The translations under genes were made by a program, and so were the position numbers. DNA of 9,014 nucleotides, taken from IMG/VR virus record IMGVR_UViG_2636415610_000010; one strand, given 5' to 3'. Origin of the DNA: a virus (Duplodnaviria; Heunggongvirae; Uroviricota; Caudoviricetes). Below are positions 363-9,014 of the stretch, one piece after another (the first letter of the stretch is position 1; each line of letters starts with the position of its first letter). The notes under the pieces were generated by a model, which ran no database searches, was not told the DNA's origin, and saw only the letters and a list, made by a program, of their open reading frames with translations.

Positions 363-650
363 TTACTGTCTCTGGCAATCTTTATCGCGATAACGCCTGA
401 AGTACCCTCTCGCTTCCTCATCCATACCAAGAGCCGAATGAGTCCGCTTAACTGCCTGTCTTAAATCTCCGAATCTGTCTGTAGTTGCTGGTGGGCGTGC
501 CGCCTTACGGATACATTCAGAGCGTCTGTTTGCTGCATGTTCACGTTCTTTATCGCCATCTGCCAGCATCATGACTTCTGCCCATCGTGCGGCAGCTCTC
601 CGGTATAGCCCTTTTGACTCCAGCTCTTCAGCTTTCCTGTCCCTTATCAT
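363..650 (-). CDS. Small basic regulator, PerC/Pch-family-like (95 aa)
   Basis: ORF from track; GAGG Shine-Dalgarno 5 nt upstream of the ATG. N-terminal LESKGLYRRAAARWAEVM matches my recollection of the PerC-family signature (LE..GLWRRAA.RW). Family call is from memory, not a search. Confidence 0.55.
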   Translation of the reverse strand: MIRDRKAEELESKGLYRRAAARWAEVMMLADGDKEREHAANRRSECIRKAARPPATTDRFGDLRQAVKRTHSALGMDEEARGYFRRYRDKDCQRQ

Positions 651-1369: not shown

Positions 1370-1747
1370 TTAGACGTGCTTGGAGAACAGGTAGCGTGCC
1401 ATCACTAAAACAATGCCAAAGACTTCAGCGAGGGTTCCCCCCATAAATAGGTTTATAACGAAATCACTAAAATGGAGCAGTTTTGCTCCAATAAGGACAA
1501 AAATCCCATTCATAACTAATAGCTGGCCTATCAGAATGCCGATAAACCACCGAGCAAACATTTTTTTCAGTTTTGTGTCTGTTTTTAAATCTTTTGTTTT
1601 TGCACGCTGATGGGCTTTGGCTGGATCCTCATCATTTAGATGTGTGAGGGTTTTTGCTGATGGTGATGAGCCAGAGGCTGGTTCACCTCTGGCTTGTCTT
1701 GCCGCTTGCTTTAGTTTTTCAGATATAGCGTAAGATCTAGACGTCAT
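1370..1747 (-). CDS. Small membrane protein: charged N-terminal ~60 aa plus two C-terminal transmembrane helices (125 aa)
   Basis: ATG at 1747-1745 lies 3 nt after the TGA stop (1753-1751) of the upstream peptidase gene, so the two are translationally coupled. Lys/Ala/Gln-rich N-terminus, then two hydrophobic helices (FARWFIGILIGQLLVMNGIFVLIGAKLL and FVINLFMGGTLAEVFGIVLVMARYLF). AT-rich coding sequence. Confidence 0.7.
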   Translation of the reverse strand: MTSRSYAISEKLKQAARQARGEPASGSSPSAKTLTHLNDEDPAKAHQRAKTKDLKTDTKLKKMFARWFIGILIGQLLVMNGIFVLIGAKLLHFSDFVINLFMGGTLAEVFGIVLVMARYLFSKHV

Positions 1748-1750
1748 TAC

Positions 1751-2233
1751 TCATCGAAGCCCTAAATTCTTTAGGCGATAACGTATAGCATCATCGGATA
1801 CACCAAAATAGGAAGCCATCATTACTGGTGCATATCCTGCATTGTTGAGGCGTCGAACCTCTTTTTCTGGCATGAGAAGACATGCTGCAAAGTTATTGGC
1901 GAATATTTCTTCGCTGTCTACACCTTGGCTTGCCAGTTTTCCGCGGTAATCAACAAACTCATATTCAAGTGGCTGACCGTTCTCAGTTCGTTTGACGTAA
2001 TGCCCTAACTCATGCGCACACGTAAATCGTTTGCGCACGTTACTATCATTACGATTGAGTATGATTACTGGATCTTGTTCTGGCTCTTTCAGCAATGCGC
2101 CTGAAACATCATCATCAAGCGTGGTTTCAACAACATCCAACCCTAACTCATTGGCAATCCATACTGGATCAACCGGGAATTTCCTATCGCCCCAGATATC
2201 TTTCAAGAGGGCATGTGCAGATGTATTCGACAT
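1751..2233 (-). CDS. ImmA/IrrE-family (M78, DUF955-type) zinc metallopeptidase, 160 aa from ATG at 2233
   Basis: HEXXH zinc-binding motif in FTCAHELGHYVKR. Strong AAGGAGGTGA Shine-Dalgarno 5 nt before the ATG at 2233-2231; the track's GTG start at 2239 falls inside that Shine-Dalgarno. Size and motif are typical of ImmA-like anti-repressor proteases. No HTH/XRE partner is encoded next to it. Confidence 0.85.
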   Translation of the reverse strand: MSNTSAHALLKDIWGDRKFPVDPVWIANELGLDVVETTLDDDVSGALLKEPEQDPVIILNRNDSNVRKRFTCAHELGHYVKRTENGQPLEYEFVDYRGKLASQGVDSEEIFANNFAACLLMPEKEVRRLNNAGYAPVMMASYFGVSDDAIRYRLKNLGLR

Positions 2234-2308
2234 GTTCACCTCCTTTGATTATGGTTAAATAGTCGAAATTTTCACCACTTCCCTTGTGGATATATTTACA
2301 TATAAAAG

Positions 2309-3184: not shown

Positions 3185-3535
3185 GTGAATGCTCAGGCTG
3201 TCATCATGGTTTTCCTTGGTCTGATTGTCGCAAAACTATATCCAGACTGGTGGAAAGGGGCATTAGCAACTGTCGCCATCTATTTGCTTTTATCCGTCGT
3301 TAAGCGATCGTTCGTTAAGACCGTAAATCAAGCAAAACGTTTCTCATTTAAGAATTTAATAAACTATATTACTGGGCTTATTTTTTGCCTTTCAATTTTG
3401 ATCGCTTCAGCTTTTTTGCCCGTATCAATAGCTAATTTTTTTGGCGCACCATATGAGGTAGGTTATCTATTCTCTGTTTTTTGTCTTGTTCTTTCCCTTC
3501 TTTACCTATGGATGAGAGCAAAGAACAAAAATTAG
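3185..3535 (+). CDS. Small multi-pass inner-membrane protein, possible superinfection-exclusion (SieA-position) protein; 116 aa from GTG 3185, ORF open from 3116
   Basis: GGGAGGG Shine-Dalgarno (3173-3179) 5 nt before the in-frame GTG at 3185. Three to four hydrophobic helices. Markedly AT-rich (about 35-37% GC against about 50% in the flanking operon). Convergent with, and immediately downstream of, the gp16-like gene, as sieA is in P22. Confidence 0.6.
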   Translation: MNAQAVIMVFLGLIVAKLYPDWWKGALATVAIYLLLSVVKRSFVKTVNQAKRFSFKNLINYITGLIFCLSILIASAFLPVSIANFFGAPYEVGYLFSVFCLVLSLLYLWMRAKNKN

Positions 3536-3549
3536 CCATCCGTGGCTAA
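3521..3549 (-). terminator. Intrinsic terminator of the minus-strand ejection-gene operon
   Basis: Hairpin TTAGCCA-tccg-TGGCTAA (3532-3549) begins 5 nt after the stop of the 701-aa gene. On the minus strand it is followed by TTTTTGTTCTT (complement of 3521-3531). Confidence 0.6.
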
Positions 3550-3553
3550 CCAG

Positions 3554-5659
3554 TTATTGAGCTTCTTTTTGTGATGCCTGTGCGACTCTGGTGAGCGATT
3601 GTGTGACCGTACTGATCGCTCTGTCATATGCTGTGCTACCTTTTGGTGTATTTGCCAGACGTAACAAGGCATTTCGTATAACAGGGCTTTCGTATGCCTT
3701 CGCTGCTCCGCCTACGGCACCAGCAGCAGGAACAACAAACGCAGCTGTTTTTAGCATCCCCGCTAATACTGCTGCGTTTATGATGCCACCACCAACTAAC
3801 AATCCATAAAGCTGCTGACCATTTAAGTTTTGAACGTTCGCTTTTGCCGCGTGTCTTGTATCGTTGAGGTATTTAATAACGCCGTCCAGTTCCTTTCCAT
3901 GTACGCCTTTAAAGAAAGTTGCTGATTGCTTCCTGTTCCGGTGTAACGCATTAATAAACTTCTCAACACTGATATTTCCAGACGGATCAGTCGCCTTATC
4001 TACAGCATTCTGAACTATGGCTGCTCGTGCGTTTTGCCTACCATTGTCATCCAGAAGCCTGTAAAGCTGAGAACGTTCTGATGGGCTTTGGCTAAAAACG
4101 AGTTTTGTTACATCCTCAGGCGTGGCCTTGCCGCTGGCTATTGCCTTTTGAACGCGCGTTCTTCCCATCATGTCATTGAATTTAGACCATGAGCGATCAA
4201 CCCTTGCCATATTAATGGCTTCGTCTGCTCCAAGATTTTTGGCTACGGCTTTTTTCATATCCGCCGTATATGCCTTGTAGATAATATCGCTGGCTTTCTG
4301 GAGCGTATCTTTATCAACAGTGTCAGATGACGCCATAAATCGCTTTCGAAGATCGGTTCTGTTTTCCCTCGCCAGACGCAGGTCATTTGGTCCGCTGGTG
4401 ATATCGTCTTTAAATTGCTGCAAGACTTTTACCGCGGCTCTATCCTGAGATTTGCCCGGGCGGCTTAACACGGCAATCTGATTGTCGATAGCTTTTACCG
4501 TGTTTGAGAGATCGACAGGGGTATCCCCCATAGCGTCAATTATGCGGTTATATCGCTTTCCTGCTGCCTCAATGAATTTTTGTTGCCCTTTAGTCGCAGA
4601 TTCATAAAGCTGTTTATCAGAAATGCCACCCAGACCATCGCTAAATGTTCTGACTAAATTTTCTCGTGCTTGTTGTTGATTCAGCCGATTCTTACCGGTT
4701 CCAAAAAAAGGAACTCTTTCGCCTAATGTCTGAGCCTGACTCTGCATAAAGGTTTTATCTTTCAGCATGTCACTGGTCATTAACGGCAGATTTCTTTCCG
4801 ATGCAAAGTCGACAGCAGCCTTTGCTTCAGGCGACATATCACCACGAACAGCCCTCGAAACCGCACTCGCTGTATTTTCCAGCCCCTTACCAATACCACC
4901 AATGCCAGCAGAAATTACCGTTTGTAACGGATCAATATCTTCTCCACCAGCAAGGCTGGTGGCTCCCTGTAGTGCTAAATCTGTAGCTGCTGATTTTCCT
5001 ATGGCACCAAGCACCGTTCCAGCCCTGCCCGCTGGTGTAAACGCCAACGCATTAGCAAGAAACGAAGTCAGGTCTTGCGGTGATAAACCAGGCTTGTTTA
5101 GGGCATAATCACCTGATGGCAGAGAAACGATAGTATTCCCCTTCTCATCCTGCCTTAATGTCGCCCCCATTCCCTGGAGAATCTTTTCCTGAGACGCGTC
5201 AGAGCCGAAAAGTTGAGACCATCCAGCCTTTAGGGCATCCATGCTTAGTGAGTTCAATTCTGGGGCAGAGGCGACATTTTGCAGTCTCTCCATCTCTGGA
5301 GTCATTCGGCTTTCGCCTGTTATAGCATCCCGCATCGCAGCCCCAAGACTGGCTCCCTGTTCTGCTGAACGCTCAAGCCCCTCTCTTTGCTGAGTAGCTA
5401 ACTTTGCATACCCTGACGCAAGAGAATTATCAGATGATGTATGTTGAATATTTTGAGTTGCTGATTGGGATCGGTCTATTTCATTCGTTGATGGTAGTGG
5501 ATAGGCAGCATAAAAAGCCTGCTTAGCCTGCTCTACACTTTCTCCGGCTTGCGGGGCCACGACTTCATTGAAGTATTGATCCTGAGCCTGCGCTTTTTGT
5601 TCTGGTGCTAACGCCTGATACTGTGGAGAGGCGATAACATCTTTCCATGCTTTAGCCAT
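3554..5659 (-). CDS. Phage DNA-ejection (injection) protein, P22 gp16-like by position (701 aa)
   Basis: Last gene of a four-gene coupled operon; its ATG overlaps the upstream stop (ATG at 5659-5657, TAA at 5661-5659). Gly/Ala/Gln-rich with low-complexity segments. Assigned by size and order, not by alignment. Confidence 0.55.
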   Translation of the reverse strand: MAKAWKDVIASPQYQALAPEQKAQAQDQYFNEVVAPQAGESVEQAKQAFYAAYPLPSTNEIDRSQSATQNIQHTSSDNSLASGYAKLATQQREGLERSAEQGASLGAAMRDAITGESRMTPEMERLQNVASAPELNSLSMDALKAGWSQLFGSDASQEKILQGMGATLRQDEKGNTIVSLPSGDYALNKPGLSPQDLTSFLANALAFTPAGRAGTVLGAIGKSAATDLALQGATSLAGGEDIDPLQTVISAGIGGIGKGLENTASAVSRAVRGDMSPEAKAAVDFASERNLPLMTSDMLKDKTFMQSQAQTLGERVPFFGTGKNRLNQQQARENLVRTFSDGLGGISDKQLYESATKGQQKFIEAAGKRYNRIIDAMGDTPVDLSNTVKAIDNQIAVLSRPGKSQDRAAVKVLQQFKDDITSGPNDLRLARENRTDLRKRFMASSDTVDKDTLQKASDIIYKAYTADMKKAVAKNLGADEAINMARVDRSWSKFNDMMGRTRVQKAIASGKATPEDVTKLVFSQSPSERSQLYRLLDDNGRQNARAAIVQNAVDKATDPSGNISVEKFINALHRNRKQSATFFKGVHGKELDGVIKYLNDTRHAAKANVQNLNGQQLYGLLVGGGIINAAVLAGMLKTAAFVVPAAGAVGGAAKAYESPVIRNALLRLANTPKGSTAYDRAISTVTQSLTRVAQASQKEAQ

Positions 5660-7080
5660 TAATCACCCCATAGTGAAGAAAAGTTACTGCTGGCTGCTGG
5701 CTGTGATACCTGCTCAGATTGCGGCAATGTCTGCGACGAAGAAGAAGTTCCTCTGTCAACTGCTGAAATAACCCGCAAAGCATCATAAGCTCGACCAGAA
5801 GCAGCTTTCAGCGAATTGAACTGGTTTTCCATCTTCCGGCGCTTGGTATCAATGGTTTTTGTGGAGTCGCCAGGCTGAGGGAAATACATTTGATAATATT
5901 TTGACATTTCAGCAGGTACGATAGCTGCCCCTGTTTCCTGACGGAGTATTGCCATTATTGCGTCATTAGCATTAACAACGTATTGCTGCTCTGTTGGGCT
6001 GAGCGTTAAGTTAGCCAGCGTCCCATTACCCAAAGCATTATTAATGACCGCCACTCGCTGTGGGCTAAGCTGGTCTTTCAGTGTATCTATTGAATCAAGA
6101 GCATCCCTAACCCTGTATGCAAATCCAGCAGCTTTTTTAGCCCCTTCTGGCGACTTTTCCATGATCTTTTGGGCTGTTGGCAAAGCTATTGGACGAAATC
6201 CATCTCCAGATATTGGCTGGTTTAGTTTTCCCTGCTCTTCACTTCCGTCTGTGTAGTATTTTGTGACAGTGCCATCATCGTTTTCTCTAACACTCATTAA
6301 TTTTTTGGCGTTTGTATTAATTCCAGCCGCTGCCGCAAATGCCGCCGCCCCCTCTGGATCCGCCTTTAACATTTGAGCGTACTGATTGTAATTCTGCATT
6401 GCTGCTGTTGGTGCATATGCTGACGTTAACGCATTTGCTCGGCTAATATCCTGCCCTCTCGCCTGAAGTGCTTCGCCAGCCTGATTGCTGCGGATTGTCT
6501 CTGCCAACTTGCCACGCTCAATATCCCGACCTTCCATTTGATCTTTGATATCGAAATACTTCTCATGACCGAGAGAAAACAGTGCCATACTACCAGCAAG
6601 CCGCTGGAACCCCTGTGGATCATTAACATGCATTTCGGCAACAGACTCAGGAGAAATTCCCAAGCGACGCATTTCATCTTCGTTATCTGCTATGAATTTT
6701 CCAAATGCCCCAGTTCCGAGCGAAGATGCGATTTGAGCACTAGTCGCAAGATGACCAATAGAATTTCTCTGGTCGTCATCAATAAAGCCCATCCCTTTCT
6801 GAACGCTTTCAAATTCTTCTGGATACTCAGAAATAAGACTGCGCATTTTGTTTCTGTCTCCAGACTCAAAAGCCCCGGCATATGCTTTCTGAAACTCTGC
6901 TTTACGCTGTTGTTGACGTGCCTGCTGATTAATCTCAGCAACGCCTCTTAGCCCCTGTAGCGCCATTAAACCTACGTTTGGCTGCTGCTGATACTGCACA
7001 GGCTGAGGAACGGAAGAACGAGGAGCATTATCATTTTGCGGTGCCATGCTAGGCAGCCCGCCAAGTTGCCATGTCGCCAT
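5659..7080 (-). CDS. Phage DNA-ejection protein, P22 gp20-like by position and size (473 aa vs 471 aa)
   Basis: TAATG start/stop overlap with the upstream gene at 7078-7082. Gln-rich N-terminus (MATWQLGG...). Confidence 0.6.
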   Translation of the reverse strand: MATWQLGGLPSMAPQNDNAPRSSVPQPVQYQQQPNVGLMALQGLRGVAEINQQARQQQRKAEFQKAYAGAFESGDRNKMRSLISEYPEEFESVQKGMGFIDDDQRNSIGHLATSAQIASSLGTGAFGKFIADNEDEMRRLGISPESVAEMHVNDPQGFQRLAGSMALFSLGHEKYFDIKDQMEGRDIERGKLAETIRSNQAGEALQARGQDISRANALTSAYAPTAAMQNYNQYAQMLKADPEGAAAFAAAAGINTNAKKLMSVRENDDGTVTKYYTDGSEEQGKLNQPISGDGFRPIALPTAQKIMEKSPEGAKKAAGFAYRVRDALDSIDTLKDQLSPQRVAVINNALGNGTLANLTLSPTEQQYVVNANDAIMAILRQETGAAIVPAEMSKYYQMYFPQPGDSTKTIDTKRRKMENQFNSLKAASGRAYDALRVISAVDRGTSSSSQTLPQSEQVSQPAASSNFSSLWGD

Positions 7081-7757
7081 TAGAATCCAAGCCCCCCAAC
7101 AAGACCAATAAGCCCACCACCAATAGCGCCGGCCGCAGTTCCTATTCCAGGAACAACGGAACCAAGTTGCGCACCCGCTAAAGCGCCTGATGCTGCCCCA
7201 CCAATACCACGCGCAAGACTGGATGGCTGCTGCGCCTGACCTGCACGAATAGCGCCAAGCCCCTGCAAGAGTTGTCCGGTATTATTGGCGTAGTTTTGCC
7301 CTGCCGTTGCCTGCCCTGATGCCGCATTCATCCCGACATTTAGCAGGTTTCCATAATTTTGCATTTGCCCACTAAGCCAATTGTTATAAAGCATGGGCGC
7401 AATGGAAGATAACTGGTTACTGGTAGCTGTTGAGCCAAGCCCCCCGGTAGCTTCTGCTGAGACAAGGTTCTGATAACGGGCCTGATCTGCCTGTGTTTTA
7501 TATAAACCAGAACCAAAGAAATCATTCGCGGCTTTATTCTGCCCTTCCAGAGTCATCAGTCCTTGTAGTTGTTGTAAAGCAGGCAATCCGACTTCTGCAT
7601 ACGGCTTGAGATTATTCATCACCGTATTCCACTGCTCGCGCTGCAAATCAATTGCCTGCTGCTGGGCCTTCGCCTGAGCTTTAGAGGCACCACCATCACC
7701 GCCTTTTTCGTATACGGCACGATTGAGATGTTTATGAGCTATATGGGTAATTAACAT
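7080..7757 (-). CDS. Phage DNA-ejection protein, P22 gp7-like by position and size (225 aa vs 229 aa)
   Basis: Start overlaps the end of the 153-aa gene. C-terminus is a Gly-rich hydrophobic tail (GIGGAASGALAGAQLGSVVPGIGTAAGAIGGGLIGLVGGLGF), consistent with a membrane-inserting virion protein. Confidence 0.6.
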   Translation of the reverse strand: MLITHIAHKHLNRAVYEKGGDGGASKAQAKAQQQAIDLQREQWNTVMNNLKPYAEVGLPALQQLQGLMTLEGQNKAANDFFGSGLYKTQADQARYQNLVSAEATGGLGSTATSNQLSSIAPMLYNNWLSGQMQNYGNLLNVGMNAASGQATAGQNYANNTGQLLQGLGAIRAGQAQQPSSLARGIGGAASGALAGAQLGSVVPGIGTAAGAIGGGLIGLVGGLGF

Positions 7758-8212
7758 TCGCTGAATTCCTTATATTGTTGCCGAGTTAACTGATAAAGCG
7801 TTACGCCGACGGGTTTACCACATCTGATATAAGCATCATCAAGGTGACCAACACGGGTAGCGCCAAGCAAACGGATAATTGCCCGTCCGTATTTCGTGGT
7901 GTCAGGAACCATAGTGATGCTGTTAAGGAATGGTGAGTTTTCGAGAAGCCATTTGCAGAATAATCGATGTCCTTGCAGTGCATATTCACCACGGAATCCG
8001 GGGTCGTACACCGCATGGCATTCAACAACGCTATGCCAGAAGTTACGCACTTCATGAACGCCAGCCAGCACTAATCCTTCGTAGATGCCGAGATATACCG
8101 CATCAGGCTTGATGTAGTACGTGTGCCCCGGCTCAACAATATTTTCGGTATTGCCTGGCTCGTTAAGAAAGGCCTGTAATCGCACAGGGTTATCAATAAA
8201 TTTTAGTTCCAT
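7751..8212 (-). CDS. Phage protein at the P22 gp14 position (153 aa), function unknown
   Basis: First sizeable gene of the coupled operon; weak GGATGG Shine-Dalgarno 6 nt before the ATG. No motif I can name with confidence. Confidence 0.6.
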   Translation of the reverse strand: MELKFIDNPVRLQAFLNEPGNTENIVEPGHTYYIKPDAVYLGIYEGLVLAGVHEVRNFWHSVVECHAVYDPGFRGEYALQGHRLFCKWLLENSPFLNSITMVPDTTKYGRAIIRLLGATRVGHLDDAYIRCGKPVGVTLYQLTRQQYKEFSEC

Positions 8213-8228
8213 GCGATGCCATCCATTT

Positions 8229-8390
8229 TCACATACAGCCTGCCAGCGCCTTATCTATTAACCCTCGTGCAATTTCATGCAGAGTTGGCGCTACTCCAAT
8301 TCCTGATTTTTTACGCTGCTCTTCCTGAATTTTCTTTATCGCTTCCATTTGCTTCTCACTTATCAATACCGGCTTTACTGAAATAGCCAT
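8229..8390 (-). CDS. Small ORF, 53 aa (MAISVKPVLISEKQMEAIKKIQEEQRKKSGIGVAPTLHEIARGLIDKALAGCM), possible ribbon-helix-helix-like protein
   Basis: Below the track's length cutoff. Strong AGGGGG Shine-Dalgarno 4-5 nt before the ATG at 8390-8388. Stop lies 16 nt before the 153-aa gene start. Short strand-like stretch followed by two helical segments. Confidence 0.5.
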   Translation of the reverse strand: MAISVKPVLISEKQMEAIKKIQEEQRKKSGIGVAPTLHEIARGLIDKALAGCM

Positions 8391-8403
8391 AACGCCCCCT
8401 TAG

Positions 8404-8429
8404 AACTGTATAAAACAACAGTTATTATA
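8404..8429 (-). promoter_or_regulatory. Consensus -10 hexamer with an overlapping LexA-box-like site upstream of the 53-aa ORF
   Basis: Minus strand carries TATAAT (complement of 8424-8429) followed directly by AACTGTTGTTTTATACAGTT (8423-8404), which fits CTGT-N8-ACAG with an AT-rich spacer and resembles the umuDC box as I recall it. No good -35 hexamer. Confidence 0.35.
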
Positions 8430-8485
8430 GTTTCACAAATCGCAATATTCATCATCGTAATTGCAAAATATGAAACAAATAGCAC

Positions 8486-8518
8486 AAAAAAATGCCACCG
8501 CTCAGTAGCTGGTGGCAT
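8486..8518 (-). terminator. Intrinsic terminator for minus-strand transcription entering from the right
   Basis: Stem TGCCACC / GGTGGCA (8493-8499 and 8511-8517) with an 11-nt loop; on the minus strand it is followed by seven T residues (complement of 8486-8492). Confidence 0.55.
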
Positions 8519-8750
8519 CGTTCTGTGTGTCAGGTTTTGACAGGTTTTTTATGGACTCTAAAAACTATATTTATGGTGTCGCATTACTCTTCACGGCAGG
8601 CGCTTTTCAGTTCTGCCCTTGCTTCTGGCTCCATTGGTAATTTGATTCGCGATCAGCTATGCGGATGGTTTGCTGAACAGGCATAACAACTTCTCAGAGG
8701 CTGTTTTCTGAACTACGAAAATTTCGTAGTGCTCACTTTCAAAAACGTCA

Positions 8751-9014
8751 TGAACCGCCCCGGGAATCCTGGAGACTAAACTTCCTGAGAAAGAGGTAAA
8801 CAGGATGACTAAAAATACTCGTTTTTCCCCTGAAGCCCGTCAACGGGCAGTACGTATGGTTCTGGAAAGTCAGGGCGAATATGACTCACAATGGGCGACA
8901 ATTTGTTCCATTGCTCCAAAGATTGGCTGTACGCCGGAGACTCTGCGTGTCTGGGTTCGCCAGCATGAGCGGGATACCGGGGGCGGTGATGGTGGGCTCA
9001 CCACCGCTGAACGT
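8751..9014 (+). mobile_element. Left end of an IS3-family insertion sequence, IS629/IS1203-like; continues beyond the window
   Basis: Terminus TGAACCGCCCCGGGAATCCTGGAGACTAAACTTCC... begins with TG as IS3-family ends do and matches my recollection of the IS629 left end; orfA starts 54 bp inside. Confidence 0.8.
8805..9014 (+). CDS. IS3-family transposase OrfA (IS629-type), N-terminal 70 aa; truncated by the window edge
   Basis: Translation [70 protein letters not shown] is the HTH-containing OrfA I recognise from IS629-type elements. GAGG Shine-Dalgarno upstream. Confidence 0.85.

Follow-up and report, generated by a model that had tools for sequence, protein, structure and literature searches.

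A LexA-box-like palindrome lies over the promoter of a 53-aa ORF that is followed by genes for virion ejection proteins, and the locus raises the question of whether this palindrome is a true SOS operator and what it would control. A first-pass annotation of the DNA assumed a prophage setting, regarded SOS control ahead of a virion-gene operon as unusual, and left the choice between a damage-inducible regulator and a chance match. We analysed the window, that is, the whole stretch of 9,014 nucleotides, together with related loci. With a probability of roughly 0.75, positions 8404–8423 are a working LexA operator that would make a five-gene operon of a phage satellite SOS-inducible; both LexA binding and induction are predicted from sequence comparison.

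The predicted operator and its operon

The promoter region and the transcription unit contain the following features, given by their positions in the window.

8484–8509, minus strand: intrinsic terminator, with a stem at 8509–8494 followed by the T-tract ATTTTTTTGT; folding of the region gives the same hairpin
8461–8475, no strand assigned: distal 15-bp palindrome TTTCA-N5-TGCAA, upstream of the −35 hexamer and exactly 30 bp from the proximal palindrome
8447–8452, minus strand: weak −35-like hexamer ATGAAT, read directly, 17 nt upstream of the −10 hexamer; its TGA is conserved in the alignment
8431–8445, no strand assigned: proximal 15-bp palindrome TTGCG-N5-TGAAA in the −35/−10 spacer, with one mismatch to TTKCA-N5-TGMAA
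8424–8429, minus strand: −10 hexamer TATAAT, read directly (ATTATA on the plus strand), abutting the operator and kept in nearly all related loci
8404–8423: predicted LexA (SOS) operator, AACTGTATAAAACAACAGTT on the plus strand and AACTGTTGTTTTATACAGTT on the gene strand, based on core pattern, matrix score and conservation
8395–8401, minus strand: Shine-Dalgarno sequence AAGGGGG, read directly, 4 nt before the ATG
8229–8390, minus strand: 53-aa protein with a ribbon-helix-helix (RHH) fold, WP_001018524.1, first gene of the operon and always linked to the promoter
7751–8212, minus strand: P22 gp14-like protein (DUF2824; Pfam 1.5e-61; PHROG 651; 84% identical to Kapi1_055)
7080–7757, minus strand: P22 gp7-like ejection protein (Pfam P22_gp7 6.6e-73; 58–70% identity to P22-like phages)
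5659–7080, minus strand: P22 gp20-like ejection protein (Pfam Inj_translocase 4.5e-58; PHROG 917)
3554–5659, minus strand: gp16-like DNA transfer protein (PHROG 770 and 29864), last gene of the operon
3520–3551, minus strand: terminator-like hairpin directly after the last gene, end of the transcription unit

The order on the minus strand is terminator, ATGAAT, 17-nt spacer, TATAAT, box, AAGGGGG and the ATG of the 53-aa ORF at 8390, which is located 13 nt past the box. The elements described by the first-pass annotation are indeed present here, namely the CTGT-N8-ACAG site (the 20-mer at 8404–8423, so that 8404–8429 comprises the box plus the −10 hexamer), the perfect TATAAT just upstream of the box (8429–8424) and the intrinsic terminator ahead of the promoter. 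This terminator isolates the promoter from the replication module that lies upstream. A simple consensus promoter scan called no promoter at this site because the −35 hexamer, with its 17-nt spacing, is weak. Just upstream of the terminator, a stretch of ~50 nt (ATAGTTTTTAGAGTCCAT on the gene strand; window 8545–8600) is conserved among E. coli, Serratia and Citrobacter-like islands (L002 and L008–L010). It overlaps a non-conserved 29-aa plus-strand ORF and has no Rfam match, and a Rfam scan of the whole window returned no family.

The CTGT-N8-ACAG core with its A+T-rich spacer, CTGTATAAAACAACAG (8406–8421), occurs once in the 9,014 bases of the window. The expected number is 0.09, and at least one such core was found in 17 of 200 shuffled sequences, so the bare core alone is just mildly unusual. 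The full 20-mer scored 20.7 bits on a matrix built from 30 E. coli LexA operators, a mid-range value for real operators that ranks between those of sulA/ssb and yebG/uvrA. This score was attained in none of 300 shuffles of the window, and the probability that a random 20-mer attains it is ~1e-6 per position, even at 70% A+T. Of the operator sequences behind the matrix, only those of dinD and yebG were re-read in genomic sequence; the dinD operator, re-found beside the island, scored 27 bits on the same matrix. The heterology-index-like value of the 20-mer is ~4.2 (8.7 in the opposite orientation). Both the matrix and the heterology-index scoring that had been proposed as a check thus place the site within the range of real operators. 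In addition, 23 of the 24 bases at 8405–8428 (ACTGTATAAAACAACAGTTATTAT) are identical to the yebG operator region (ACTGTATAAAACCACAGTTATTAT), and a short-query search with the box region also returned the yebG operator in ~530 E. coli genomes. In Salmonella, the classical SOS gene yebG has one box, located 17 bp from the ATG, from which it is induced 41-fold, and the tightest LexA control has been found for boxes that lie near the ATG and overlap the start site (PMC8072944). As a binding site, the predicted operator is an ordinary Gammaproteobacterial SOS operator.

The 53-aa ORF is separated from the gp14-like gene by 16 nt, and from there on the start and stop codons overlap. With terminators at both ends, the unit is therefore a 4.9-kb operon of five genes. 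The gp14, gp7 and gp20 proteins of the island are 84%, 58% and 35% identical, respectively, to their counterparts in the P22-like phage Kapi1. The earlier description of the 53-aa product as RHH-like stands at the level of the fold, which is a strand-helix-helix arrangement of ~45 residues (MetJ/Arc/CopG), and does not extend to a curated RHH sequence family, since no match was obtained among Pfam, PHROG or PDB sequences, even with a 35-member profile. Homologues of the protein number 59 among 1.8 billion representatives. Those with readable context are located after a DUF927 primase gene in int-alpA islands of Enterobacterales, and no phage encoding the protein was found in phage records. Within the operon, a second LexA-like site (CCCTGTATGCAAATCCAGCA, 6111–6130; 16.1 bits) is present inside the gp20-like gene. 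Its score was reached in 3 of 300 shuffles, and the site is kept in the same gp20 allele (L001, L013, and L033) and absent from the EcCIMP1 allele.

The satellite that carries the operon

Gene order and a shared protein accession identify the element as a phage satellite of E. coli, namely a phage-inducible chromosomal island (PICI) of the EcCIMP1 family. It is neither a phage nor, as the first-pass annotation had assumed, a prophage. The region is present in ~500 of 5,426 complete E. coli genomes (~9%). In the uninterrupted copy L001, the island is located between yicC and dinD with the order integrase, AlpA-type HTH, AntA, DUF4222, TOPRIM/DUF927 primase, iterons (GGTTCAGTTGGTTCA), terminator, promoter plus operon, ImmA/IrrE, and PerC. 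The complete copies L001 and L030 show the features by which PICIs are recognized: an integrase, alpA, a primase/replicase followed by an iteron origin, a length of ~15–20 kb, and no capsid, tail or lysis genes. The window itself covers the island from the late promoter to PerC only. Direct and inverted iterons (GGTTCAGTTGGTTCA / TGAACCAAC) were observed right after the primase gene at 12600–12830 in L001 and 11190–11430 in L030, which is the position expected for a PICI origin. The LexA operator of dinD (27 bits) is located ~0.7 kb beyond the PerC-gene end of the island (L001 3518–3537; L031 415–434).

EcCIMP1 encodes the same protein accession, WP_001018524.1, and has an identical terminator, promoter and LexA 20-mer. 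It shares with the window's island the order int, alpA, antA, primase, ori, RHH gene, gp14/gp7/gp20/gp16-like genes, and PerC. The two differ in their integration site (tRNA-Thr in MP1, yicC/dinD in the closest complete genomes to the window), in the gp20 and gp16 alleles and accessory genes, and in an IS3-family insertion that is present in the window's copy. In E. coli MP1, excision, packaging and transfer of EcCIMP1 take place only with the P22-like helper Kapi1, and its alpA promoter does not respond to mitomycin C alone, excision requiring the helper (Pick, Stadel and Raivio, 2025, PMC11773190). The same paper notes "DNA transfer" and DUF2824 genes beyond the primase gene and does not describe the RHH protein, the promoter or the LexA box; neither it nor the later MP1 transcriptome paper mentions LexA.

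The IS3-family element (left end plus orfA; window ~8749–9014, plus strand) lies between the origin iterons and the late-operon terminator, 320 bp upstream of the site, and leaves the terminator, promoter and operon intact. We take it to be IS629-like. Its exact junction at ~8749 was not found among complete E. coli genomes.

The accessory region contains further regulatory genes. An ImmA/IrrE metalloprotease gene (1751–2239, minus strand; PADLOC CapP model, 4.9e-25) has a partner gene for a 125-aa protein (1370–1747, minus strand). CapH/CapP and ImmR/ImmA are known DNA-damage-responsive regulatory pairs, and by analogy these two genes may form a second DNA-damage-responsive pair. A PerC-family regulator gene is present at 363–650 (minus strand); the PerC homologue of EcCIMP1 has been reported to silence LEE1 expression in Citrobacter rodentium (PMC11773190).

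Conservation of the promoter region

The promoter can be aligned across E. coli, Serratia, Klebsiella, Pantoea, and others. Loci with ejection-protein cargo were picked by tblastn on protein content and not by the box. In every one of these P22-type loci (E. coli, Citrobacter-like, and Serratia), the box is intact and right after TATAAT, with the following versions on the gene strand.

E. coli (window): AACTGTTGTTTTATACAGTT
L033: GACTGTTGTTTTATACAGTT
Serratia nevei: TACTGTGTCTATATACAGTT
L008/9: AGCTGTATCGTTATACAGTG
L010: GTCTGTATCGTTATACAGTG
L011/12: TACTGTATCGTTATCCAGTG

Among the 6 distinct box versions of the ejection-cargo islands, CTGT and CAG are invariant and 9 of the 13 other positions are variable. 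Under a hypergeometric model, all 9 variable positions would miss the 7 core positions with a probability of 715/167960 (~0.004). The base before CAG alternates between A and C, as in real LexA operators. Intact boxes were also found in Pantoea, Lonsdalea, and Photorhabdus islands, and the intact versions score 15–21 bits on the LexA matrix. Across nine orthologous boxes, the more informative a position is in the LexA motif, the better it is conserved (Spearman coefficient of 0.86). Since only intact boxes entered this set, the value is in part circular; the loci defined by their cargo provide the comparison free of this bias. In ~500 E. coli genomes, no more than one mismatch occurs in the 42 nt around the box, while half of these genomes are just 90–95% identical over the surrounding 302 nt.

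The matrix score, the near-identity to the yebG operator, the position in the promoter and this phylogenetic footprint agree with the earlier suggestion of a LexA operator over a damage-inducible 53-aa gene and the ejection operon, which we retain as a prediction. The competing suggestion of a chance origin is rejected in view of the full-site score, its low random probability and the conservation of the core across islands. A broader form of that view, in which the site is LexA-like and functionless in the window's copy, either as a chance match or as a relic in a decaying island, is consistent with the frequency of the bare core in shuffled sequences, with the interruption of this copy by the IS3-family element and with the loss of the box in half of the family (see below). 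We regard it as quite unlikely, because the full-site score was never attained by shuffles, the same 20-mer is present in EcCIMP1, whose mobility has been shown experimentally, the core has stayed invariant in at least 5 lineages with diverged spacers, the 42 nt around the box surpass their flanks in conservation, and the IS does not touch the terminator, promoter or operon.

A competent box is missing in ~14 of 24 distinct related promoters, mostly by a spacer that is 1 bp shorter (CTGTATAAATAT-CAGG). This shorter spacer was observed in Klebsiella, Raoultella, Cedecea, Rahnella, Serratia silvae, Chimaeribacter, two Pantoea, and E. coli LR-33, the last of which also has CTGT mutated to CTTC. 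The Leclercia and Pectobacterium promoters have core mutations in the box. These losses indicate that LexA control would be a dispensable, lineage-specific layer, and the predicted control is gained or lost by very small sequence changes. Outside the ejection-protein clade, no correlation was found between box status and cargo type, the box being intact in some tape-measure islands and not in others.

The shorter element, CTGTATAAATATCAGG, is itself well conserved. This could point to another ligand, in which case the palindrome would be the operator of a different protein (the 53-aa RHH protein, or a regulator from the helper or the island) and its likeness to a LexA box would be incidental. 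The RHH gene and the promoter always travel together, and the near-constancy of CTGTATAAATATCAGG in Klebsiella, Raoultella, Cedecea, Rahnella, and Serratia silvae suggests a constraint other than LexA. However, the intact versions score as LexA operators, the invariant positions are the LexA-critical ones only, and the identity to the yebG operator region is 23 of 24. The shorter version may also owe its conservation to the likely start site and the Shine-Dalgarno sequence (CAGGAGG), both of which it overlaps. Moreover, a separate pair of palindromes in the same promoter is a more natural operator for the RHH protein. We therefore consider an incidental likeness unlikely and prefer LexA as the ligand of the box.

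The paired TTKCA-N5-TGMAA palindromes recur with the same 30-bp spacing at the same place in the promoter in L002–L007, L015–L018, L025, L026, and L032, and the pairing crosses genera. Elsewhere in the related loci, the pattern is almost absent. The pair is present in box-intact and box-broken relatives alike and is better conserved than the box. It is a candidate operator for a second regulator, most likely the 53-aa RHH protein, which would probably bind it. As the RHH gene alone is found with the promoter in every case, RHH autoregulation would be the simplest reading. In the helper phage Kapi1, no paired TTKCA-N5-TGMAA palindromes were found (one copy is present, unpaired), and no LexA site reached 12 bits. 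These results indicate that the promoter elements were not copied from the helper and give no indication of a helper-borne cognate regulator.

The box may also be read in the other direction, with LexA controlling a plus-strand transcript that leads away from the operon, for example one for an SOS-induced hydrophobic peptide of the type I toxin kind (tisB, dinQ). TATTAT at 8423–8428 with TTAGAA 18 nt upstream is readable on the plus strand, and the 29-aa ORF at 8551–8640 (MDSKNYIYGVALLFTAGAFQFCPCFWLHW) is hydrophobic, with a similar MDSKNY... ORF in Serratia. However, the start codon of this ORF is lost in EcCIMP1 and L013, in which the box is unchanged, and the type I toxin reading was rejected on this ground. 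In L008–L012, the upstream DNA differs except for short weak matches, and the box and the minus-strand promoter are kept. The upstream region matches no Rfam family and has an unremarkable folding z-score of −1.76. A plus-strand target is thus very unlikely, and we retain the minus-strand operon as the target of the predicted operator.

Further LexA boxes and other cargo were observed in the related islands. Extra boxes of 16–22 bits are located right after the integrase stop codon in L002 (2686–2705), L003 (2845–2864), L008 (8–27), L009 (748–767), and L006 (149–168), and this post-int box is conserved in Serratia, Citrobacter-like, and Klebsiella islands. It is absent (decayed) in the E. coli yicC/dinD copy, with a 10.9-bit remnant in EcCIMP1, and hence it lends no support to the window's site. 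Tandem pairs of LexA boxes between internal genes are present in L032 (10266–10307) and L028 (11565–11606). The promoter-plus-RHH cassette heads P22 ejection proteins in E. coli, Citrobacter-like, and S. nevei islands, tape measure proteins in Pantoea, Lonsdalea, and Chimaeribacter, internal-head/injection transglycosylases in Klebsiella, Raoultella, Pectobacterium, and Leclercia, and a baseplate hub in Rahnella and K. michiganensis. No description of such a cassette with varying genome-delivery modules was found in the papers searched.

Proposed mechanism and comparison with known systems

We propose the following sequence of events. In the undamaged cell, a LexA dimer would occupy the box, at approximately −6 to +14 of the ATGAAT-17-TATAAT promoter, and block RNA polymerase. 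Upon DNA damage, activated RecA would lead to self-cleavage of LexA, and the same signal would induce a resident P22-like helper prophage. The operon would then be transcribed, supplying the RHH protein and the gp14/gp7/gp20/gp16-type ejection proteins during assembly of the helper capsids. A second regulator, most likely the RHH protein, probably acts on the two palindromes 30 bp apart, which would render the promoter double-gated or self-limiting; feedback of the RHH protein on the promoter of its own gene is probable. Because the alpA switch is helper-dependent and not SOS-dependent, the box would not induce the island but time one operon. Foreign sets of ejection proteins enter P22 virions, function there and alter the sensitivity to SieA exclusion (PMC10883804), which makes it plausible that the ejection proteins of the island are used in transducing particles. 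Exclusion of the SieA type depends on the gp16/gp20 alleles (PMC10883804).

A wider reading, which we offer tentatively and would not expect to hold in all its parts, joins these observations. LexA and the RHH protein would form a double gate on a portable promoter-regulator cassette that heads a virion module across Enterobacterales satellites. The cargo would consist of delivery proteins matched to the helper type (P22 ejection proteins, tape measures, internal-head/injection transglycosylases, or baseplate hubs), and direct SOS control would be toggled by a single-base change in the spacer. Satellite injection proteins loaded into helper particles could let satellite DNA enter cells whose prophages exclude the ejection proteins of the helper.

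If LexA truly gates the operon, Gram-negative PICIs share the solution of the staphylococcal SaPIs. The induction switch of the island would sense the helper phage, and the virion-acting operon would directly sense the DNA-damage signal of the host, so that SOS-triggering antibiotics would directly raise the expression of transfer-related genes of the satellite. E. coli MP1 and phage Kapi1 form a tractable system with an identical promoter, in which the prediction is easily tested. The locus also draws attention to a widespread island that encodes its own DNA-injection proteins. LexA control appears to be unreported for Gram-negative PICIs; in the key papers on these elements, no LexA box is reported and the SaPI LexA work is present in the reference lists only.

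Among chromosomal SOS genes, yebG is the closest parallel, with a single box close to the start codon and an operator region that differs at one base. Unlike that of yebG, the window's box is on a mobile element, has the opposite strand orientation relative to the gene, and precedes virion-protein genes instead of a repair-related gene.

A second parallel is found in temperate phages. Coliphage 186 tum is a LexA-controlled antirepressor, and the Gifsy prophages reportedly carry LexA-controlled antirepressors as well (Lemire et al., 2011, cited in PMC8072944). In these systems, as predicted for the present one, a mobile element places a small regulatory gene under a host LexA box, and damage is sensed without a cleavable repressor of its own. 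Antirepressors inactivate a repressor and thereby induce the prophage, whereas the window's box heads an ejection-protein operon of an island whose induction switch, alpA, responds to the helper and not to SOS.

The third parallel is operon I of the staphylococcal island SaPIbov1, which is reported to be LexA-regulated and is located downstream of the replication module (Ubeda et al., 2007, cited in PMC3152322). The first-pass annotation regarded SOS control ahead of virion genes as unusual; as the element is a satellite, LexA control of a post-replication operon is not so unusual, and SaPI operon I provides a precedent. The host is Gram-negative here, the LexA motif is CTGT-N8-ACAG and no sequence homology is present. 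Operon I encodes a small terminase and proteins for capsid-size redirection, neither of which is found in the window's operon with its RHH protein and gp14/gp7/gp20/gp16-like ejection proteins, and the analogy is one of logic only. Both are operons of a phage satellite (PICI) placed after the replication module under host LexA control, which is predicted in our case. Operon I acts on helper virion assembly, as the window's operon would, with expression tied to the SOS signal that also induces the helper prophage.
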